Shown here: positions 1 through 9,697 of the stretch, one piece after another
How positions within the stretch are numbered: position 1 is the stretch's first letter
How the letters are laid out: every line of letters starts with the position of its first letter
Assembly (NCBI GenBank): GCA_039925225.1
Contig: JBDSZH010000050.1
Location: 1 to 52,445 of the forward strand
Direction: 5' to 3'
Length of the DNA: 52,445 nucleotides
Source: Candidatus Limnocylindrales bacterium
GTDB lineage: Bacteria > Chloroflexota > Limnocylindria > Limnocylindrales > CSP1-4
Position numbers and translations under genes: made by a program
Notes under the pieces: model-generated
Told to the model about the DNA's origin: nothing
Database searches by the model: none
What the model saw: only the letters and a program-made list of their open reading frames with translations

Positions 1-38
1 CTGGATCGACCGAATCCTTGGTCGCAGCTGACGCAGGC

Positions 39-44
39 TACCCT
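39..44 (+). promoter_or_regulatory. -10-like hexamer TACCCT 7 nt upstream of the galE ATG (leaderless layout)
   Basis: Read directly: 'gcTACCCTtccggccATG'. The same TANNNT + 6-7 nt + start layout recurs at 10 other genes in the window. Confidence 0.4.
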
Positions 45-51
45 TCCGGCC

Positions 52-1020
52 ATGCGCATCCTGGTCACCGGCGGCGCCGGCTATGTCGGCTCCGTTTCAG
101 TCGAGCATCTCATCGATTCCGGGCATGAGGTCGTCGTGCTGGACAACGGTGTGTCGGACAACCCGGCGGCGGATCTGGTCGGTTCCGCGATCGTCCGCGG
201 GAGCTACGGCGACCGACCGCTGGTGAGGGACCTTCTGGCAACCCACGGCATCGACGCGGTCCTGCATACGGCGGCGCGCTCGCTCGTGGGCGAATCCATG
301 CGTGAGCCCGCGCTGTACTACGGCGAGAACGTGGCCGGCGGGATCGCGCTCCTCGACGCGATGCGCGACGCGGGCGTCGTCCGGCTCGTGATCTCCTCGA
401 CCGCGTCCGTGTACGGCGAGCCGGAATCGAGCCCCGTGCGCGAGGATGCCCCGCTCCGTCCGATCAACGTCTACGGCGAGACGAAGCGCTCCTTCGAGGC
501 CGCGGCGGGCTGGTACGGGCGGGCGTATGGCCTGCGCGCCGCTGCGCTGCGCTATTTCAACGTCGCAGGTGCGAGCGAGCGCAACGGCGAGGTACACGAC
601 CCGGAGACGCACCTGATCCCGAACATCATCAAGGCCGTTCGCGGAGGTGCACCGCTGAACGTGTGGGGCGACGACTACCCGACCCCTGATGGCACGCCGA
701 TCCGCGACTACCTGCACGTCCGTGATCTCGCCGCGGCCCATCGGCTCGCGCTCGAGGCGACCGCACCCGGCGACCAGCGGACCGACGCGATGCTGACCTG
801 CAACCTGGGCAGCGGCCGCGGCTTCAGCGTGCGCGAGGTCATTGCGGCCGCCGAGCGCGTGATCGGGCGGCCGATCCCACGGATCGAGGGCCCACGCCGC
901 GCAGGCGACCCGCCGCAACTCGTCGCCGCAATCGAGCGCGCGCGCGACGTGCTGGGCTGGGCGCCGGAACGCTCGACCCTGGACGAGATGATCGGCTCCG
1001 CCTGGGCCCTCCGCGCCTGA
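52..1020 (+). CDS. galE: UDP-glucose 4-epimerase
   Basis: 322-aa ORF. N-terminal Rossmann motif 'ILVTGGAGYVGS', catalytic 'YGETK' (YxxxK), and length typical of GalE. Confidence 0.9.
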   Translation: MRILVTGGAGYVGSVSVEHLIDSGHEVVVLDNGVSDNPAADLVGSAIVRGSYGDRPLVRDLLATHGIDAVLHTAARSLVGESMREPALYYGENVAGGIALLDAMRDAGVVRLVISSTASVYGEPESSPVREDAPLRPINVYGETKRSFEAAAGWYGRAYGLRAAALRYFNVAGASERNGEVHDPETHLIPNIIKAVRGGAPLNVWGDDYPTPDGTPIRDYLHVRDLAAAHRLALEATAPGDQRTDAMLTCNLGSGRGFSVREVIAAAERVIGRPIPRIEGPRRAGDPPQLVAAIERARDVLGWAPERSTLDEMIGSAWALRA

Positions 1021-1251
1021 TCCCCGCGTCCAATCGCCCGCCCAGCGGGCGAACCGGCGAAGGAGCGGCCCTTTTGCACCCACGCGGCACATTCCGCTGC
1101 GGTTTTGGGCCCACCCAAGTTGGAGAACAGCGGAGATCGGGCGTCGTTGCGGATCGCGGGGATCGGTTGGGCCGATTTGCTGATCCTTCTTCGTCGTAGC
1201 GCCCGCTGAGCGGGTCCAGGCGGGCCGGCGGGACACCCGGACGTCGAGCGC

Positions 1252-1290
1252 GAGCCGGAGCCCGAGCCGGAACCGGAGCCCGAGCCGGAT
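1252..1290. repeat. Tandem GAGCCN hexamer repeat (18-bp unit 'ccggagcccgagccggaa' about x2) in a convergent intergenic region
   Basis: Read directly: 'gagccggagcccgagccggaaccggagcccgagccggat'. No ORF with a start codon spans it. Confidence 0.6.
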
Positions 1291-1312
1291 TCGGCGTGGG
1301 AGCCAAGCTTCG

Positions 1313-2707
1313 TTAGAAGCGCGCCTCGCTCGGCATATCCGCGGCGGGCATGAGGTGCTCCGGCGGCGAACGAACGCCGCCTTCGTCCCCCGACTCGACC
1401 GTGTGATCGGGAACGCCACGAAGCAGTGCCATCCCGATCAGCATCAGGATGAGGAAGCTCAGGATTCCGACCTGGTACGCGCCGTCGCCCCAGCCCGCGT
1501 TGAGCAGGACCGACACGATTGTCCCGTACAGGATCGGGCCAGTCACGGCGCTGAATTTGCCCGCGAGGCCGTACAGCCCGAAGAACTCGCCGATCTTGTC
1601 GGCCGGTGACAGTCGGAGCATCAACACCCGGTCCGAGGTCCAGACGCCGCCAAGCCCGGAGCCGAGCAGCACGCCGGCGATGAGGAAGGTCGGCTTCGAG
1701 AGGACCGAGCCCGCGATGATCAGGCCGACGGCCCAGCTCGCGAGGACGATCATCAGGGTTCGCTTAGGTCCGATCCGTTCCACGAGCACGCCCCAGCCGA
1801 AGCTCGCGAAAACCGCGGCCACGGTGAGCAGCAGGAGCACGATGTTTGCCTCGCCGCGGGTGAAGCCGATCGCCTCAGTCATGAACACCGTCATGATCAC
1901 GATCACCGTGTTGACGGGGTCGGTGTAGAAGAAACGAGCCACGAGAAACCGCAGCATCCCCGGGACCTTGCGCGCGTCGGCGATCGTGGTCCGGAGCTGG
2001 CCCCACGATGCCAGCGCGTCGCCGACCCGGAAGCGATAGCCGCTCGCGGCAGGTTCGCGCACGATCAGGAAGATCGGGATCGCGAACAGGGCGAAAAGCA
2101 CCGCGGCCATCAAGAAGGTCAACGGCGTCGCGCCGCTGTCGGTGATCAGGATCAGGAGCGCGATGAGGATGGTGCCGAGGTAGCCCACCGCCACCCCGAT
2201 CCCGGAGACGCGCCCGCGACTGGTGGGCTTCGAAACCACGGGCAACGTGGCGTCGTAGTAGATCAGCGCCGCCTGATAGGAGAAGTTCGCGAGCGTGAAC
2301 AGCAGGAGGCCGATGATCGTCAGCCCGGACGCACCAGCCGGCAGCAGCCCGATTGCTGCCGTCGCGACGACGCATTGGGCCGTGAAGAACAGCAGGTACG
2401 GCAGGCGCCGGCCCCCGCGATCGGACATGGCTCCGAGCACCGGCGAGACCAGCGCGTTGAGTCCCACGGACGCGGCGTTCGCGATCCCGAACCAGAACTG
2501 ACCATCCGCGGGCCCGAGTCGGTCGACGACCCACAGGCCCATCGCGTACGAAACGATGGCGTAGCTGTAGATCGTGTTCGCGAAGTCGTACAGCGCCCAG
2601 GCCACGGGAACGCCGGCGCGGCCGGACGGCGTTAACCCGGCGAGACGCTCGATGAGGCGCAGTCCGCGCCCTGAGCCGGTAACCGCGGCGGTGCTCGTCA
2701 CTGGCAA
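1313..2707 (-). CDS. MFS transporter, UMF1 (Atg22-like) family
   Basis: 464-aa polytopic ORF. The N-terminal 'WALYDFANTIYSYAIVSYAM' is typical of UMF1-type MFS proteins. About 12 hydrophobic segments. Confidence 0.75.
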   Translation of the reverse strand: MPVTSTAAVTGSGRGLRLIERLAGLTPSGRAGVPVAWALYDFANTIYSYAIVSYAMGLWVVDRLGPADGQFWFGIANAASVGLNALVSPVLGAMSDRGGRRLPYLLFFTAQCVVATAAIGLLPAGASGLTIIGLLLFTLANFSYQAALIYYDATLPVVSKPTSRGRVSGIGVAVGYLGTILIALLILITDSGATPLTFLMAAVLFALFAIPIFLIVREPAASGYRFRVGDALASWGQLRTTIADARKVPGMLRFLVARFFYTDPVNTVIVIMTVFMTEAIGFTRGEANIVLLLLTVAAVFASFGWGVLVERIGPKRTLMIVLASWAVGLIIAGSVLSKPTFLIAGVLLGSGLGGVWTSDRVLMLRLSPADKIGEFFGLYGLAGKFSAVTGPILYGTIVSVLLNAGWGDGAYQVGILSFLILMLIGMALLRGVPDHTVESGDEGGVRSPPEHLMPAADMPSEARF

Positions 2708-2769
2708 CCCTCCGCGCCGATGATAAGCGGGCCGATGGGCGCGAATCGGGCTGCGGCGCGCATCGGTGG

Positions 2770-2775
2770 TACGGT
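2770..2775 (+). promoter_or_regulatory. -10-like hexamer TACGGT 6 nt upstream of a GTG start
   Basis: 'ggTACGGTgagccgGTG'. Confidence 0.35.
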
Positions 2776-2781
2776 GAGCCG

Positions 2782-4146
2782 GTGCCTCAGCCTGTGCTGA
2801 CGCCGGCCATCCGAGAAGCGATCGCCCGCCTGGAGCGGGCGGACATCATGGTCGGCATCCCGAGCTTCAAGAACGCGACGACCATCGGCTATGTCGTGCG
2901 CGCGGCTCAGGCTGGCCTCGTCCAGTACTTCCCGGATCTGCGACCCGTCGTGGTCAACTCGGACGCCGGCTCGCCGGACGGCACGCAAAGGGTTGTCGTC
3001 GACACCGAGCCGCCGGACTACGTCGAGCGGATCCTGCTCGTCCGCCCGACCAACAAGCTGGCCCGCGTCTCGCTGACCTACCCGGAGATCGACGGTACCG
3101 GCGGCAAGGGTGCCGCGCTCCGCACGATCTTCGAGATCGCCGCGGCGCTGGAGGTCCAGGCGCTGGTCGTCGTGGACTCGGACCTGCGGAGCATCGGGCC
3201 CGAGTGGATCGAGCTCCTCGCCGGCCCGATCCTGAAGGGCGGCTATGACTACGTCGCGCCGCTGTACGCGCGCCACAAGCACGACGGCACGATCACGAAC
3301 AACGTCACGTACCCGCTCACGCGCGCGCTGTACGGATTGCGCATCCGGCAGCCCATCGGCGGCGACTTCGGGGTGTCCGGCGACCTCGTCCGGCATTACC
3401 TCGAGGCGGGCTACTGGACGTCCGAGGTCTCAAAGTTCGGGATCGACGTGTGGATGACCACGCACGCCCTCACCGGCGGCTTCGCGATCTGCCAGGCGCG
3501 ACTCGGCGCAAAGGTCCACGACCCCAAGGACCCCGGCGCAGATCTGGGCCCGATGTTCCGCCAGGTCGTGACCACGATCCTGCGAATGGCCGTGGCGAAC
3601 GCCGATCGCTGGCGCCAGGTCAAGGGCAGCCACGACGTCCCGGCCTACGGCTTCGAACGGCTCGCAGACCCCCCGCCGCTCGACGTGAACGTGCTCAGGC
3701 TGTTGTCCGAGTTCAACGAGGCGGCGCTGACGATGAGCACCACCTGGAGCGAAATGCTGCCCGATGACACTGCGGCGGCCGTGCAGGGTCTCGCCGACGA
3801 GGCGGGGACCGCGGCGGACGCCGTCCGTACCGCGCTGGACCTGGGTGCGCCCGGCCAGGAACGAGCCGCTACCGCCGCGATGGCAGACGCCGCCGCGGGC
3901 TTCGGATTCCCGGATGCCGTCTGGGCCCGCGTGGTCTTCGATCTCGTGATTGCCGCCCGCGACCACCCCGACCGTCTCGAATCGTTCGTGGCTGCACTCG
4001 TGCCCGTCTACTTCGGACGAGTGGCGAGCTCGGTCATCGAGAACCGGTACCTGTCCACCGAGCGTGCCGAGGAGAGCGTGGAGCGGCAGGCGCGCGAATT
4101 CGAACGCCTGAAGCCGTATCTCGTCAATCGATGGGCGAAGGCATGA
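2782..4146 (+). CDS. GT-A fold glycosyltransferase-like protein (function unassigned)
   Basis: 454-aa ORF with 'VGIPSFKNATTIGYVV' near the N-terminus and a DXD-like 'LVVVDSDLRS'. Its 3' end overlaps the downstream gpgS-like gene by 16 nt, so the two look operonic. Confidence 0.6.
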   Translation: MPQPVLTPAIREAIARLERADIMVGIPSFKNATTIGYVVRAAQAGLVQYFPDLRPVVVNSDAGSPDGTQRVVVDTEPPDYVERILLVRPTNKLARVSLTYPEIDGTGGKGAALRTIFEIAAALEVQALVVVDSDLRSIGPEWIELLAGPILKGGYDYVAPLYARHKHDGTITNNVTYPLTRALYGLRIRQPIGGDFGVSGDLVRHYLEAGYWTSEVSKFGIDVWMTTHALTGGFAICQARLGAKVHDPKDPGADLGPMFRQVVTTILRMAVANADRWRQVKGSHDVPAYGFERLADPPPLDVNVLRLLSEFNEAALTMSTTWSEMLPDDTAAAVQGLADEAGTAADAVRTALDLGAPGQERAATAAMADAAAGFGFPDAVWARVVFDLVIAARDHPDRLESFVAALVPVYFGRVASSVIENRYLSTERAEESVERQAREFERLKPYLVNRWAKA

Positions 4147-6065
4147 CCGAGCAGCCGCTGCCCGTTCGAATCGTCATCCCGGTCGCCAACCCGGCTACCG
4201 CAGAGGAGCTGATCCGGCTCGGTGCGGACCTGCTGGATCCGCGCGGCGGCGAGCTAACCGCACTGGGCATCGTCGAGGTGCCCGAGGGTATGCCCCTGTC
4301 CGAGGGCGCAACGCGCGCGCGGCATGCGCGGCGGCTGCTCCAGCGCGTCCTCGACTTCGTGCCCGAAGGCACGCACATCCACCCGCTCGTCCGTATCGGG
4401 CGACACGCCGCGGAGGGCATCCTCGAAGCCGCCGCGGAGCTCGAGGCGGACCTCATCGTGTTCGGCTGGGGCGGCAAGTCGCCGGCCGGGCGCGACGCGG
4501 TCACGAGTCCGTTCTCCGCGACGATCGACGAAGTGCTGCGCGAGTCACCGTGCGACATCGCGGTGGTGAAGCAGCGCGGCGTGCGCGACCTCAAGCGCGT
4601 CGTCGTTCCGGTTCGGGGCGGGCCGCACGCAGAACTGGCGCTGAGGGTCGCGAGCGTGATCGCGAGGCGCCACGAAGCCGAGCTCGTCGTGCTCCACGTC
4701 GTGATGCCCGGGATCACTTCGGCCGTGCGTGCCCAGGCTGAGCGCGCCCTGACCGCATTCGTCCGCCAGCACGTGAACGGCCCCGTGGAGATGCTCGTAC
4801 GCGAGGCCTCCAACGTGCGTGCCGCCATCCTGCGCGAAGCAGACCACTCGGACATCGTCGTGATGGGCGCGGCCGTACCGACCGCCGTGAACGGCAACAC
4901 CCACGTGTTCGGCGCAATGCCGGAAGCGATCGCCATGCGCTCGAAGACCACGGTCGTCGTCGTCAAGACGCGCGAGACCATCGGGCGCCAGACCTTCGAG
5001 CAGCTCGCCACGAAGGCTGAATCGCTTATCGCCGCCGACCGCGCCGCTGAGGAATCACGCGCCGTTCCAGCCAGGGTGGAGCGCTGGTTCGGCGAGTCGA
5101 ACTTCCATCACGGCGAGTTCGCGGACCTCCGCCGGCTGGTGCAGCTCAAAGAGAAGCAGGGCCTGACCGTGAGCCTCGTGCTACCGACGCTCAACGAGGC
5201 GGACACGATCGGCCCGATCGTCCGGCGTGCGATTCGCGAGATGGTCGGCCGGGTGCCGCTGCTGGACGAGGTCCTCGTGATGGATTCGGCATCGACGGAC
5301 CGGACTCGTGAGATCGCCGAGGCGGAGGGCGCCCGAGTCGTCCAGCACCCGGATGTGCTGAGTCGATACGGCACCTTCCACGGCAAGGGCGAGTCGCTCT
5401 GGAAGTCGATGTACGAGACCAGTGGCGACATCATCGTGTGGGCGGACACGGACGTGCGGAACTGGCACCCCCGCATGGTCTACGGCACGCTCGGGCCACT
5501 CCTGCATGAGGCGCGGCTGCAGTACGTCAAAGGCTACTACCAGCGCCCGATCGTGCAGGGCGGCGTCCTTCGCGAGGGCGGCGGCGGCCGGGTCACCGAG
5601 CTCGTCGCCCGGCCGCTGATCAACCTGTTCTTCCCCGAGCTGTCCGGCTTCATCCAGCCGTTGTCCGGGGAATATGCCGGGCGGCGGTCGCTGCTCGAGC
5701 AGATCCCTTTCTTCACCGGGTATGCGGTCGAGATCGGGCACCTCATCGACGTCGCCGAGCGGGCCGGGCTCGACGGGCTCGGCCAGGTCGACCTGGAGCG
5801 ACGTGTGCATCGAAACCAGGAGCTCGAGGGCCTGTCGCGGATGAGCTTCGTGATCCTCCAGGCGGTCATGAAGCGGATCGAAGAGCGGCGCAAGGCACGG
5901 CTCTTTGCCGAGCTCGGATCCACGATGAAGCTGCCACGTTCCGGGCGGGGCCGCCTCTCGCTGGAAGTCATCGAGCTGGCCGACATGGAGCGACCACCGA
6001 TGGTCCGCATCCCCGAGTACCTCGAGCGCCGCGCGCGCACAGTCGCGGACCTGCTCACCGACTGA
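4131..6065 (+). CDS. gpgS: Fusion protein: two universal stress protein (USP) modules + glucosyl-3-phosphoglycerate synthase (GT81)
   Basis: Residues ~10-290 form two USP-like repeats ('EADLIVFGWGG', 'HSDIVVMGA'). Residues ~340-644 carry the GpgS-type core ('LVLPTLNEADTIGPIV', 'VMDSASTDRTREIA', 'GKGESLWKS', 'WADTDV'). Confidence 0.8.
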   Translation: MGEGMTEQPLPVRIVIPVANPATAEELIRLGADLLDPRGGELTALGIVEVPEGMPLSEGATRARHARRLLQRVLDFVPEGTHIHPLVRIGRHAAEGILEAAAELEADLIVFGWGGKSPAGRDAVTSPFSATIDEVLRESPCDIAVVKQRGVRDLKRVVVPVRGGPHAELALRVASVIARRHEAELVVLHVVMPGITSAVRAQAERALTAFVRQHVNGPVEMLVREASNVRAAILREADHSDIVVMGAAVPTAVNGNTHVFGAMPEAIAMRSKTTVVVVKTRETIGRQTFEQLATKAESLIAADRAAEESRAVPARVERWFGESNFHHGEFADLRRLVQLKEKQGLTVSLVLPTLNEADTIGPIVRRAIREMVGRVPLLDEVLVMDSASTDRTREIAEAEGARVVQHPDVLSRYGTFHGKGESLWKSMYETSGDIIVWADTDVRNWHPRMVYGTLGPLLHEARLQYVKGYYQRPIVQGGVLREGGGGRVTELVARPLINLFFPELSGFIQPLSGEYAGRRSLLEQIPFFTGYAVEIGHLIDVAERAGLDGLGQVDLERRVHRNQELEGLSRMSFVILQAVMKRIEERRKARLFAELGSTMKLPRSGRGRLSLEVIELADMERPPMVRIPEYLERRARTVADLLTD

Positions 6066-6322
6066 GGCCGCTGCCGCCCGCCCGCGTGTCGCGCCGCTGC
6101 CGTGGTCGACTTCCGGCTGGCGGTGGATTCGAGATGGTTCCAACGAAGCGAAACCACTTGCCTCGATGCGCACATTTGGGCCGCGGGCGGGAACTTTTGC
6201 GCTGCCTCCACGTTGGTTCCGCTTGATCGGAACCCACTCAATTTGGGCGCAAAAGGCGACCGGCGCCCGCCGCACGAGCACGAATCCGACAACCGCGGGC
6301 ATTCGTGCAACGATTCCGGACG

Positions 6323-7444
6323 ATGCGCGTCGTCATCGCTCCAGACTCGTTCAAAGGTTCGCTGACCTCGATCGAGGTTGCCACAGCGCTCGCGACTGGG
6401 TGGCTCGCCGCGCGCCCGGAGGATGAGGTCCTCCTCGCGCCGCTCGCGGACGGCGGGGAGGGCACCCTGGTCGCGATCGCGGCCGCGGGCGGGTGGGAGT
6501 GGCATACCACGCCCTCCACGGATCCGATCGGGCGACCGGTGGAAGCGCGCTGGCTCCGATCCGCCGACGGCACCCGCGCGGTCGTCGAGCTTGCCGAGGC
6601 GTCGGGGCTCTCGAGGCTCACCGTCGCCGAGCGCGATCCGATTCGGGCATCCACCTTCGGGACGGGCACCGTGTTGCTGCGGGTGATGAATGACTCGGCG
6701 ATCCAATCCATCACGCTCGGCATCGGCGGTAGCGCAACAACCGATGGCGGCGCTGGAATACTCAAGGCACTGGGCGGCTGGGGTCCCGACGGCGAAGTCG
6801 ACCTGAGCGGTGGTCTCGACCAGTGCCTCGCGGAGATCGACCTGCGGATTGCCTGCGATGTCTCGAATCCGCTCCTCGGACCAACTGGGGCGGCCGCGAC
6901 GTACGGGCCGCAGAAGGGTGCGACGCCGCCACAGGTCGCGGAGCTCGACGCCAGGCTCACGCGCTACGCCGACTCCATCCGAGCCGCAACAGGCCGCGAC
7001 GAGCGGGAGACGCCGGGGGCTGGTGCAGCCGGCGGGACCGCTTTCGGGCTGCTCTCGATCGCCAGGCACTTCCGGTCGCTTCGACTTGTCCCCGGCGTCG
7101 AGGTCGTGATGGAGGAAACGGGGCTACGCGAGAAGCTCGCGGGTGCCGATCTCGTGATCACCGGTGAAGGGCGAATCGACGCCCAGACCGCATTCGGGAA
7201 GACGGCGCTCGGCGTGGCACAGCTCGCACACCGTGTCCGCGTCGCGTGCATAGCGGTCGGTGGCGGGGTCGAGCCCGGTGGTATCGAGGCCCTCAGACCC
7301 GTCGGCGCGGTCGTCGTGCCGATCGTCGAACGACCGCAAACGGTCGAGGAGGCCATGGCGGCCGGCATCGAGCCGGTCGTCCGCTGCGGCGAGCGGCTGG
7401 CTCGGCTGGTGTCGCTGGGCAACTTGACTAAGTCCATCGACTAA
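6323..7444 (+). CDS. Glycerate kinase
   Basis: 'MRVVIAPDSFKGSLTS' is the canonical glycerate kinase N-terminus, and 'ITGEGRIDAQTAFGK' lies near the C-terminus. The ORF track starts at GTG 6305; ATG 6323 gives the conserved N-terminus. Confidence 0.85.
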   Translation: MRVVIAPDSFKGSLTSIEVATALATGWLAARPEDEVLLAPLADGGEGTLVAIAAAGGWEWHTTPSTDPIGRPVEARWLRSADGTRAVVELAEASGLSRLTVAERDPIRASTFGTGTVLLRVMNDSAIQSITLGIGGSATTDGGAGILKALGGWGPDGEVDLSGGLDQCLAEIDLRIACDVSNPLLGPTGAAATYGPQKGATPPQVAELDARLTRYADSIRAATGRDERETPGAGAAGGTAFGLLSIARHFRSLRLVPGVEVVMEETGLREKLAGADLVITGEGRIDAQTAFGKTALGVAQLAHRVRVACIAVGGGVEPGGIEALRPVGAVVVPIVERPQTVEEAMAAGIEPVVRCGERLARLVSLGNLTKSID

Positions 7445-7458
7445 GGCACGATCCAGCC

Positions 7459-7722
7459 ATGGAAAAGGTGGTCAACATTCACGAGGCGAAGACGAACTTC
7501 TCCCGCCTCATCGAGCGGGTGCGGGCCGGCGAACGAGTCGTGATCGCGAAGGCAGGGCGCCCGGTCGCGGTCCTGTCACGATACGAAGGGCGTCCCCCGC
7601 GTCGGGTACCGGGCATGGACCGGGGGCGCGTCGTGATCCATGCGAACTTCGACGATCCGGTCCCGGAGTGGGATCCGGACAACATGCACCCGGACGATCC
7701 GCTGCGCGGGCTGGTTGGATGA
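7459..7722 (+). CDS. Type II antitoxin, Phd/YefM-like
   Basis: 87 aa. 'IHEAKTNFSRLIERVRAGERVVIAKAGRPVAVL' is the typical antitoxin N-domain. Its stop overlaps the toxin start (ATGA at 7719-7722). Confidence 0.8.
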   Translation: MEKVVNIHEAKTNFSRLIERVRAGERVVIAKAGRPVAVLSRYEGRPPRRVPGMDRGRVVIHANFDDPVPEWDPDNMHPDDPLRGLVG

Positions 7723-8105
7723 AGGTCCTGATCGACTCGCACGTGTTTCTGTGGTGGGTTCTTGAGGAGCCGCGGCTGACGCCGGCCATGCGCGAGATCA
7801 TTTCGGATGGCGGCAATGAGATCTTGTTCAGCGCCGCAAGCGCGTACGAGCTCGCCTACAAGGCGGCAGACGGACGATTGACGCTGCCGGAGGATGCCCA
7901 GTCCTATATCACCGATCGACTTGACGCCAATGGCTTTGATCCGTTGCCGGTCGACATTGGCCACGCGCTGACGGCCGCACTGCTGCCGCGCATCCATCGC
8001 GATCCGTTCGACCGCCTCTTGGTGGCCCAGGCCCAGCGTGAGGGCATTCCCATCCTGACGGCGGATCCCGTGATCGCTCGGTACGACGTCGAAACCATCT
8101 CGTGA
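7719..8105 (+). CDS. vapC: PIN-domain toxin (VapC-type ribonuclease)
   Basis: 'MKVLIDSHVFLWW...', 'FSAASAYELAYK', 'DPFDRLLVAQA...PILTAD' are acidic PIN signatures. The internal ATG at 7719 was chosen over the ORF-track start 7668 because of the ATGA coupling. Confidence 0.85.
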   Translation: MKVLIDSHVFLWWVLEEPRLTPAMREIISDGGNEILFSAASAYELAYKAADGRLTLPEDAQSYITDRLDANGFDPLPVDIGHALTAALLPRIHRDPFDRLLVAQAQREGIPILTADPVIARYDVETIS

Positions 8106-8929
8106 GCGAGGGCACGCCGCGCTCTCGCTCGCCTGCGCGGAGGCGGCACAAGCCGAACCCGTACCTCGCCTGGGCGAAGCGCCTCGAGCGGACGCGGCCC
8201 GGGCTCGTCCGGTTCACCCTCGACGGCCTGGCATCGGTGTACGGGCACCCCCCGTATGCGCGGCGCTGGGATCCCACCTCGGAGCTGATCCTCACGATCC
8301 TCACCCAGAACAGCGCGGACGTGAACGCCGAGTACGCGTTCATCGAGCTCCGAAAGGCGTACCCGTCGAATCGACCGGAGGAGCACCACGAGCCCGGGGC
8401 CGGCTGGGGCGGCGACGGCCTGCCGGATGGCGTGCCGCCGGACTGGGCGCTGGTCGACATGGCGCCGCTCGAGGAGCTGGTGGAGGTCATCCGTCCCGGC
8501 GGACTGCCGAACGGCAAGGCCCGCGGGATCAAGGCGGCGCTCCGGGCGATCCATGAGACGCGCGGCGACTACTCCCTCGAATTCCTCGGCGACATGCCCG
8601 CGCTCAAGGCGCGTACGTGGCTGACGAACATCAAGGGCATCGGCGTGAAGACGGCATCTGTGGTGCTGCTGTTCTCGTTCGGGATGCCGCTGATGCCCGT
8701 CGACCGCCACGTCGAACGTGTCGCCTCTCGGGTGGGCTTGCTGCCGAAGAAGGCGACCGCCGACCAGGCACACGACTACATGCTCGCGATGCTCCAGCCC
8801 GACGAGGTGCACGCCGCGCACGTGAACCTGATCCAGCACGGGCGGCTGATCTGCCACGCCCGGAACCCGGCGCACGAGCTGTGCCCCCTTCGCGCCCGCT
8901 GCCGCTTCGTGGACCTCAGGGCACCCTAG
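8102..8929 (+). CDS. HhH-GPD base-excision DNA glycosylase (endonuclease III-like)
   Basis: 'LTNIKGIGVKTASVVLLFSFGMPLMPVDRHVERV' is a helix-hairpin-helix/GPD motif with a C-terminal Cys cluster 'CHARNPAHELCPLRARC'. The GTG start overlaps the vapC stop (GTGA). Confidence 0.8.
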   Translation: MSEGTPRSRSPARRRHKPNPYLAWAKRLERTRPGLVRFTLDGLASVYGHPPYARRWDPTSELILTILTQNSADVNAEYAFIELRKAYPSNRPEEHHEPGAGWGGDGLPDGVPPDWALVDMAPLEELVEVIRPGGLPNGKARGIKAALRAIHETRGDYSLEFLGDMPALKARTWLTNIKGIGVKTASVVLLFSFGMPLMPVDRHVERVASRVGLLPKKATADQAHDYMLAMLQPDEVHAAHVNLIQHGRLICHARNPAHELCPLRARCRFVDLRAP

Positions 8930-8938
8930 GCCCGCGTG

Positions 8939-8944
8939 TATCCT
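8939..8944 (+). promoter_or_regulatory. -10-like hexamer TATCCT 6 nt upstream of ATG 8951
   Basis: 'gTATCCTccggccATG'. This supports 8951 rather than 8936 as the response-regulator start. Confidence 0.4.
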
Positions 8945-8950
8945 CCGGCC

Positions 8951-9697
8951 ATGTTGAGCGGCGGCGGTTGGAGGGGCGGCCCCGGGGCCCCGCGCATCCT
9001 CATCGTCGACGACGACCCGAACCTGCTCGTGCTCCTCGCCGATCAACTGCGCGCCGATGGCTTCGAGATCCAGACGGCGCGGGACGGGGAAGAGGCACTC
9101 AGGCGCCTCGACGGCGGCTGGCCGGATCTGCTGATCGTGGACATGATGATGGCCCGCATGGACGGCCTCACCCTCGCCCGAGAGGTCAAGGCACGCGCCG
9201 ACCTGCCGATCATCGTCCTTTCGGCAATCGACACCGCCGACTCCAAAGCCGACCTCCTCGAGGAGGTCGCCGAGGACTACGTCACCAAGCCGTACCACTA
9301 CCCGGAACTGCGGGCCCGGATCATGCGGGTCATGCGCCGGCTCGGCGACAAGGTGCCGCGGCGCGAGCTCGTGCTGGGTCCGGACCTCTCGCTGGAGCTG
9401 CGCCGCAAGTCGGCGACCGTAAAAGGCGAGGTCGTGCAGCTGACGCCCACCGAATCGCGCTTGCTCTATGCGCTCGCCGCGAACCTCGGCAACACCGTGA
9501 GCACGGAGACGCTGCTCGATCGGGGCTGGGGCGATACGGACGACGCGGATCCGTCATACGTCTGGGTGACGATGCGCCGGCTGCGCCAAAAGATCGAGCC
9601 GGACCCGGACCACCCGATCCACCTGGTCACGGTTCGCGGGGTCGGCTACCGGCTCGTCTCCCGGGCCGCACCCGAGCCGGTCGGCGAGGCTGGGTGA
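8951..9697 (+). CDS. OmpR-family response regulator
   Basis: Receiver domain ('RILIVDDDPN', 'DLLIVDMMMARMDG', 'YVTKPY') plus a winged-helix output ('TVRGVGYRL'). Confidence 0.85.
   Translation: MLSGGGWRGGPGAPRILIVDDDPNLLVLLADQLRADGFEIQTARDGEEALRRLDGGWPDLLIVDMMMARMDGLTLAREVKARADLPIIVLSAIDTADSKADLLEEVAEDYVTKPYHYPELRARIMRVMRRLGDKVPRRELVLGPDLSLELRRKSATVKGEVVQLTPTESRLLYALAANLGNTVSTETLLDRGWGDTDDADPSYVWVTMRRLRQKIEPDPDHPIHLVTVRGVGYRLVSRAAPEPVGEAG

Follow-up and report, generated by a model that had tools for sequence, protein, structure and literature searches.

The DNA analyzed here, a window of 52,445 nucleotides (nt) that makes up contig C50 of a metagenome-assembled genome (MAG) from a Candidatus Limnocylindrales bacterium, carries a three-gene operon encoding a 454-amino-acid (aa) GT-A glycosyltransferase, a synthase of glucosyl-3-phosphoglycerate (GpgS) fused behind two universal stress protein (USP) domains, and a glycerate kinase. 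GpgS, the GT-A family, and glycerate kinase constitute a recurrent module, to which a phosphatase may or may not belong. On balance, we favor a model of two-entry synthesis of a glycosyl-glycerate solute, in which GpgS and the GT-A protein, a relative of the one-step synthases Ggs and MGS (mannosylglycerate synthase), provide the two entries, the kinase links them, and the USP domains have a regulatory role. The operon product would most likely be a protective compatible solute, either glucosylglycerate (GG) or mannosylglycerate. The MAG comprises 1.85 Mb in 179 contigs, is 62.6% complete, and has a G+C content of ~69%; all closest relatives of the central gene come from Limnocylindria or other Chloroflexota MAGs, which were recovered from soil, groundwater, and fresh water. 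Such bacteria abound in soils, aquifers, and fresh water but are almost uncultured, so that their ways of coping with drying and salt are mostly known by inference.

The C-terminal domain of the 644-aa fusion protein is assigned to GT81, its best-fitting family, and transfer to 3-phosphoglycerate (3-PGA) is predicted. Residues 315–628 match the NCBIfam GpgS model NF010496 from model position 4 to 306/307 with 366 bits, the cut-off being 262. The top solved relative is 3f1y, the GT81 MpgS/GpgS (MpgS, mannosyl-3-phosphoglycerate synthase) of Rubrobacter xylanophilus (E-value 7e-78), and the mycobacterial GpgS structures come second (E ~6e-60). The domain contains a DxD motif (D439-T-D441), the sequence GGGRVTE (including R487 and T489), PLSGE at 510–514, and H560-R-N. 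V488-T489 and H560 align to binding and catalytic residues of 3f1y and mycobacterial GpgS; the residue roles, namely the DxD, the metal-binding His, and the Val-Thr carboxylate site, come from the structural study of M. tuberculosis GpgS (PMC2581804).

The N-terminal part of the protein is matched in two stretches by PF00582 (Usp, 75.5 bits), and its sequence-level resemblance to solved USPs is marginal (E ~0.004). Structure prediction confirmed that the modules have the USP fold. AlphaFold2 modeled residues 10–280 with a predicted local distance difference test score (pLDDT) of ~80–90, and the best Foldseek matches of the modeled pair were Rv2623 and TTHA0350, both tandem USPs (probability 1.0, target TM-score 0.67–0.75, E ~1e-14 to 1e-12), with further matches to UspE and to the C-terminal domains of KCC/NKCC cotransporters. 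The USP-USP-GpgS fusion read in the initial annotation therefore stands: no other GT-A family fitted the C-terminal domain better than GT81, and the USP fold was recovered in front of it.

The same annotation had suggested direct nucleotide or stress gating of solute synthesis, since USP domains commonly bind ATP or cAMP, and the nucleotide part of this idea fared less well. USPs of the ATP-binding subclass (MJ0577 type) carry a G-x2-G-x9-G-[ST] motif and a conserved Asp after strand 1. On motif reading, neither USP module contains this motif or the PVD aspartate. Module 1 has PVANP and GWGGK-x12-S-A-T instead of the canonical ATP motif, while module 2 has PVRGGPH, conserved throughout the fusion family, and G-A-A-x12-G-A, retaining just G246 and G261. 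Over 39 divergent fusion clusters, the only residues that persist are R67, W113, PCD, RGGP, G246, and G261. Within Chloroflexota and outside GpgS, the pair comes closest to the tandem USPs at the C-terminus of APC-type amino-acid permeases, with 28–32% identity across residues 14–271. In the permeases and the KCC/NKCC cotransporters the tandem USPs sit at the C-terminus of a membrane transporter, whereas here they are N-terminal on a soluble glycosyltransferase. Judged by these relatives, the pair is best described as a putative transporter-type regulatory and dimerization unit. Given the degenerate ATP motif and the transporter-C-terminal type of the modules, direct gating by ATP or cAMP stands on weak ground.

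This locus is not alone in having the fusion. In an evenly drawn set of 301 Chloroflexota genomes, in which a fusion was scored when residues ~10–635 were covered in one 600–700-aa frame, it was found in ~90 genomes belonging to ~21 families, and unfused GT81 GpgS was seen in none of the 301. The fusion is thus how GT81 GpgS normally occurs in this phylum. An exhaustive HMMER search against 1.84 billion cluster representatives returned 6019 matches; among the best 150, ~40 were full-length fusions with identities of 34–58%, and the named fusion matches were either from Dehalococcoidia, labeled “universal stress protein”, or carried the Joint Genome Institute (JGI) name “glucosyl-3-phosphoglycerate synthase”. 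A text search of a paper collection for a USP-GpgS fusion found no paper. Permanent attachment of the main synthase to two transporter-type stress-protein domains would be a regulatory design not known to be described for GpgS, one that gives direct access to the control of solute synthesis at the post-translational level.

The 454-aa protein encoded upstream of the fusion gave merely a sub-threshold match to Glycos_transf_2 in Pfam and a weak match to GpgS in NCBIfam (57 bits). Because its AlphaFold2 model was poor, the protein was assigned through profile-sequence searches; assignment at the level of fold was abandoned when Foldseek yielded generic GT-A matches, none at E <0.001. The sequence alone retrieved only GT81 GpgS structures from the PDB (E 2.5e-8). 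A family profile built from a diverse alignment (A3, members 37–56% identical to the window protein) matched GT81 GpgS at E 8.6e-11 and the GT78 MGS of Rhodothermus marinus (2bo4) at E 3.4e-8, with the next best match at E 0.012. Since the PDB matches are limited to GpgS and MGS, all solved relatives of the family glycosylate glycerate or 3-PGA. Invariant in the family are GKG 108–110, D132-x-D134, T170-I171-T172, and H246, the metal-binding His. The I171-T172 pair matches the glycerate-carboxylate site, which is formed by Ile138-Thr139 in MGS and Val186-Thr187 in GpgS (PMC2581804). MGS, which works on free glycerate in a single step, shares with the 454-aa protein the GT-A core followed by a helical C-terminal domain as well as the Ile-Thr pair; the similarity of the family to MGS is, however, weaker than to GT81, and PF21969 (MGS_GT), recorded for many family members, does not match the window protein at E 0.01. 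Relative to GpgS, the protein misses ~12 residues of the β6-α6 loop, which in GpgS has been suggested to touch the phosphate of 3-PGA (PMC2581804), and has HDPK in place of HRNR. The shortened loop and HDPK would fit a non-phosphorylated acceptor.

The family is very large: a search started from one of its distant members returned 5941 matches at E <1e-10 from several phyla, with Thermodesulfobacteriota, Syntrophaceae, and Aerophobetes among the taxa. Many homologues carry the JGI name “glucosylglycerate synthase”, which we use as a lead only. Most likely, the 454-aa protein forms glycosyl-glycerate in one step, as Persephonella Ggs does. The initial annotation, which had left the specificity of this protein unassigned, had offered a single-step synthase as one option, and the restriction of its solved relatives to GpgS and MGS, the Ile-Thr pair, and the gene linkage described below make that option plausible.

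The third gene encodes a class I (GlxK/GarK-type) glycerate kinase, matched over its full length by PF02595 (364 bits, E 1.2e-108) and TIGR00045 (337 bits, cut-off 168). The equivalog models for glycerate 2-kinase and 3-kinase both fell below their own cut-offs, so the product may be either 2-phosphoglycerate or 3-PGA.

The arrangement is conserved. The GT-A gene lies directly before USP-gpgS in 79 of 80 Limnocylindria loci, glxK follows USP-gpgS in 74 of the 80, and the core of Ggs-like transferase, USP-GpgS, and GlxK is kept in both Limnocylindria families, down to ~53% identity. In other Chloroflexota the USP-gpgS and GT-A genes are unlinked, and a gene for a class II (DUF4147 + MOFRL) glycerate 2-kinase precedes and overlaps the GT-A homologue in six of ten loci. 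For other phyla, we collected 80 loci around gpgS of the Methanococcoides/Persephonella type, which is unrelated to GT81, counting GT-A genes within 8 kb. An MpgP-type phosphatase was present in 54 of these loci, the GT-A family in 27, and a class II glycerate kinase in 27, and all four genes often co-occur. Members of the GT-A family were found adjoining both a Methanococcoides-type gpgS (NF040724, 363–375 bits) and an MpgP-type phosphatase (TIGR01486, 231 bits against a cut-off of 164.75). The recurrence of the module, with its GpgS and kinase slots each filled by non-homologous proteins in different lineages, strongly indicates that both the 454-aa enzyme and the kinase belong to glycosyl-glycerate metabolism. 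Glycerate kinase, which the initial annotation had regarded as a possible feeder of phosphoglycerate, is accordingly a genuine partner of the pathway: kinases of both classes, unrelated to each other, are repeatedly found alongside gpgS and GT-A genes, and glucosylglycerate gene clusters of several phyla regularly contain one. To our knowledge, published glucosylglycerate pathway schemes do not include it.

The two transferases also occur in single polypeptides. GT-A/GpgS fusions were found in both orders (P0187, GT-A-GpgS; P0169, GpgS-GT-A), and P0131 is a triple fusion, GT-A-USP-USP-GpgS. In a further variant from Chloroflexota (L165:5343–9044, minus strand), a 1233-aa frame joins a distant GT-A homologue to a terminal GH130 domain resembling β-1,2-mannobiose phosphorylase (244 bits). 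On a 290-kb metagenome contig, a cluster running from gpgS and gpgP to a GT-A gene closes with a gene for a mechanosensitive-channel domain (L188:6258–6977), which fits a role of the module in osmoadaptation.

Outside Limnocylindria, the neighbors of USP-gpgS differ. In the other Chloroflexota, a GT4 gene precedes USP-gpgS in all ten loci, and a 200–226-aa His_Phos_1 gene follows it in at least five of the ten. The GT4 weakly resembles mannosylglucosylglycerate synthase NF041101, and the linked His_Phos_1 protein matches mycobacterial GpgP (PDB 4pz9) over its full length (89 bits). In the resulting trio of GT4, USP-GpgS, and His_Phos_1 (L166–L175, e.g. L166:7312–11163), the resemblance of the GT4 hints that these lineages make a diglycosyl-glycerate; no earlier description of such clusters was found. 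They contain the same USP-USP-GT81 fusion as the window (42–50% identity) but differ from it in having an MggS/MggA-like GT4 upstream and a GpgP-like His_Phos_1 downstream, both of which Limnocylindria have lost. GT4-GpgS and GT4-GpgS-GH13 fusions exist as well. One of these, P0176 (1383 aa, from a JGI metagenome), combines a GT4, a GT81 GpgS, and an α-amylase-type GH13 domain under the JGI name glucosylglycerate phosphorylase, apparently uniting synthesis and phosphorolysis domains in one polypeptide.

The initial annotation had noted that the expected phosphatase is not in the window, and we likewise found no GpgP of either known type there. A search of the own genome and four larger Limnocylindria genomes with TIGR01486 (MpgP-type HAD-IIB) gave nothing above cut-off, and tblastn of the own genome with the GT4, the class II glycerate kinase, and the gpgS-linked phosphatase of other Chloroflexota revealed no orthologues. 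His_Phos_1 matches in the own genome lie only on two other contigs, C92 and C68; the best of them, on C92, was rejected as a GpgP candidate, being nearer to Rv3214 (2a6p) and matching GpgP with just 35 bits. Because the own genome is incomplete, absence was checked in relatives too. In 12 Limnocylindria genomes, some of them 95–99% complete, the gpgS-linked His phosphatase gave no more than 80 bits, as compared with at least 180 bits for true orthologues. Since near-complete relatives also lack a known GpgP, the absence is class-wide and not an assembly artefact. An earlier “missing phosphatase” problem in mycobacteria was solved by a non-orthologous phosphatase (PMC3240985), and a whole class devoid of both known GpgP types repeats that problem. 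By analogy, the most economical explanation would be a non-orthologous phosphatase encoded elsewhere in the genome. A number of Limnocylindria genomes, one of them from the same genus, encode an MGH1-like (GH63-type) hydrolase that, judged by its family, could release glycerate from the solute; the incomplete MAG analyzed here contains a weak match only.

The domain identities, the conservation, the linkage of the genes, the fusions, and the lack of known phosphatases are observed; for the substrates, the directions of flux, the regulatory role of the USP domains, and the physiological role of the solute, we infer the following scheme. The GT81 domain of USP-GpgS would transfer the sugar of a nucleoside diphosphate (NDP)-hexose to 3-PGA, yielding glycosyl-3-phosphoglycerate, which would be dephosphorylated by a phosphatase encoded elsewhere and orthologous to neither known GpgP type. 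The 454-aa Ggs/MGS-like enzyme would use NDP-hexose and free D-glycerate to form glycosyl-glycerate in a single step. Free glycerate, which could be set free by breakdown of the solute or taken up, would be converted by the class I kinase to phosphoglycerate, joining both acceptor pools. The tandem USP would most likely make GpgS responsive to a signal, osmotic or ionic, or to a small ligand, without canonical ATP binding.

Several observations weigh against this scheme. Two supposedly alternative synthases joined in one polypeptide are odd for redundant routes, and the GT-A/GpgS fusions fit consecutive steps better. Co-expression of a glycerate-consuming kinase with a glycerate-requiring enzyme has no obvious logic. 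On present annotation the two-step route lacks a step, as no known GpgP was found in 5 to 12 near-complete Limnocylindria genomes. The PLSGE motif has been tied to discrimination against mannose, making the enzyme glucose-selective (PMC2581804), and S512 of this motif is Ala (PLAGE) in most Limnocylindria relatives and in the dual-specificity Rubrobacter enzyme; the choice between a glucose and a mannose donor is therefore not fixed. Finally, the AlphaFold2 models of the GT81 part and of the 454-aa protein, built on alignments of 27 sequences with at least 72% identity, were poor (mean pLDDT 59).

Fusion in both orders is typical of consecutive enzymes, and together with the GT4-GpgS fusions it speaks for the main rival of this scheme, a sequential pathway in which the GT-A protein would add a second sugar to glucosyl-3-phosphoglycerate or GG, yielding a diglycosyl-glycerate such as mannosylglucosylglycerate in the place of the GT4. 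The GT-A gene indeed occupies the slot that the GT4 gene holds upstream of USP-gpgS in the ten other Chloroflexota loci, and the similarity of that GT4 to NF041101, although weak, points the same way. We nevertheless consider such a pathway unlikely: the sole solved relatives of the GT-A family act on glycerate or 3-PGA themselves, the Ile-Thr pair of the glycerate-carboxylate site is invariant in the family, and the family also occurs with glycerate kinase apart from gpgS. Moreover, the known enzymes MggA and MggS are GT4-like rather than GT-A, NF041101 itself matching GT4 proteins. The proximity of the GT81 domain to the dual-specificity Rubrobacter MpgS/GpgS, the prevalence of PLAGE over glucose-selective PLSGE among relatives (PMC2581804), and the matches of GT-A family members to MGS_GT raise another prospect, that the two transferases use different donors, glucose and mannose, and make both glucosylglycerate and mannosylglycerate or their phosphates. 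This is quite improbable in our judgment, given that the GT81 domain exceeds the NCBIfam GpgS equivalog cut-off and that the JGI name of the GT-A family, used as a lead only, is glucosylglycerate synthase; the sequence features examined fix the donor for neither enzyme.

The product need not be an osmolyte at all. In mycobacteria, GpgS starts the synthesis of methylglucose lipopolysaccharides (MGLP), and nitrogen limitation makes GG build up (PMC2581804; PMC5381378). The operon might likewise make a primer for an intracellular polysaccharide or a nitrogen-starvation metabolite, with the USP pair as a mere dimerization scaffold, for which its degenerate ATP motif could be cited. The conserved cluster, however, contains no genes for methyltransferases, acyltransferases, or GH57 elongation enzymes, the cluster of one relative ends with the mechanosensitive-channel gene, and the USPs are of the type attached to transporters; we rate this explanation as very improbable. 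Returning to the synthesis of a glycosyl-glycerate solute through two entries, a stronger version may be entertained tentatively, though we think it unlikely to hold: the Ggs-like transferase, USP-GpgS, and the kinase would form, rather than redundant routes with a helper, one coupled system that has no dedicated phosphatase in Limnocylindria and contains the USP pair as a built-in osmotic or ionic sensor. Its basis is the fusion of the transferases in both orders and the recurrence of both unrelated kinase classes in the clusters. Coupling could be achieved in either of two ways, by the transferases acting consecutively on a phosphorylated intermediate or by cycling of glycerate between the free and the phosphorylated pool, and the transporter-type tandem USP would switch on solute synthesis directly at the enzyme.

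The Persephonella marina ggs-gpgS-gpgP cluster (Fernandes et al. 2007; Costa et al. 2007, cited in PMC3736172) combines a one-step Ggs (EC 2.4.1.268) with a two-step GpgS/GpgP route. As in the window, a glycosyltransferase of unassigned family stands beside GpgS and two routes share one cluster; furthermore, the GT-A family of the window adjoins gpgS of the Persephonella/Methanococcoides type and MpgP-type gpgP in other phyla. The window differs in that its GpgS is of the unrelated actinobacterial GT81 type, with two USP domains, and in that a class I glycerate kinase gene replaces the phosphatase gene. In comparison with the characterized GT81 GpgS/MpgS enzymes (Rv1208, 3e25; M. hassiacum, 7p5l; R. 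xylanophilus, 3f1y), the catalytic domain aligns over its full length (E 7e-78 to 6e-57) and conserves DxD, GGGRVTE, PL(S/A)GE, and HRN, whereas the window protein has a 300-residue N-terminal tandem-USP extension and has as partners a Ggs-like transferase and a kinase instead of a His-phosphatase GpgP of the Rv2419c type. All of the catalytic kinds are known, and a two-route cluster has already been published. Unstudied are the USP-GT81 fusion, widespread in Chloroflexota, the regular membership of the kinase, and the phosphatase-less arrangement of Limnocylindria. As the pieces are of known kinds, the advance would be incremental unless the three proteins do form one coupled system.

All four genes named in the initial annotation, those of the operon and a divergent transporter gene, were recovered as open reading frames at the positions given there (Table 1).

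Table 1. Positions of the operon, its protein domains, and adjacent features in the window
Feature	Position	Strand	Basis
ATG22/UMF1-like major facilitator superfamily (MFS) transporter, 464 aa	1313–2707	−	PF11700 94.9 bits; MFS_1 82 bits; divergent from operon
GT-A glycosyltransferase, 454 aa, C-terminal helical domain, Ggs/MGS-like family	2782–4146	+	Profile relatives, invariants, context
USP-USP-GpgS fusion, 644 aa counted from ATG 4131	4131–6065	+	Pfam Usp, NF010496, 3f1y match; likely start ATG 4143
USP module 1, residues ~13–147	4167–4571	+	Pfam Usp; AlphaFold2 pLDDT 76–91; Foldseek tandem USPs
USP module 2, residues ~156–280	4596–4970	+	Pfam Usp; AlphaFold2; Foldseek; motif reading
GT81 catalytic domain, residues ~310–628	5058–6014	+	NF010496, 3f1y, mycobacterial GpgS
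Spacer gpgS-glxK, unusually long, not conserved	6066–6322	no strand	No counterpart by blastn in 80 related loci
Class I (GlxK/GarK-type) glycerate kinase, 379 aa	6305–7444	+	PF02595, TIGR00045; likely start ATG 6323

The 16-nt overlap between the GT-A gene and USP-gpgS that had been reported for this locus is present if ATG 4131 starts the fusion. In the relatives, however, the two genes are joined by a 4-nt, ATGA-type overlap in 44 of 66 loci, which makes ATG 4143, lying on the TGA stop codon at 4144–4146, the likely real start. Between gpgS and glxK, most relatives have a gap of −21 to +57 nt, compared with 240–257 nt in the window. The spacer has a strong predicted fold (−112 kcal/mol); with no Rfam match and no counterpart in the related loci, it was rejected as a conserved RNA element. 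Eight relatives (L018, L032, L051, L055, L065, L072, L076, and L080) carry at this position an additional gene of ~170–230 aa, absent from the window. It was considered as a phosphatase and rejected, its motif being GNAT acetyltransferase-like.

The UMF1-type MFS gene proposed as the divergent upstream neighbor of the operon exists, separated from the GT-A gene by just 75 nt, but its functional tie to the operon is loose and uncertain: a homologue lies nearby in 60 of the 80 Limnocylindria loci, often with a ligase-like gene in between. An insert of ~235 aa between the MFS and GT-A genes, absent from the window, was noted in L004, L007, L011, L018, L027, L032, L039, L054, and L071; it too was rejected as a phosphatase, its motifs resembling those of a relict ATP-dependent DNA ligase of the LigD type. 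Nothing was found when positions 1–9000 and 2600–7600 were scanned for Rfam families, promoters, and terminators. Downstream of the operon lie unrelated genes, including those for a DNA glycosylase and a response regulator. Upstream, at 52–1020 and convergent to the MFS gene, lies a gene for a GalE-like NAD-dependent sugar epimerase/dehydratase, which could supply or interconvert nucleotide sugars.

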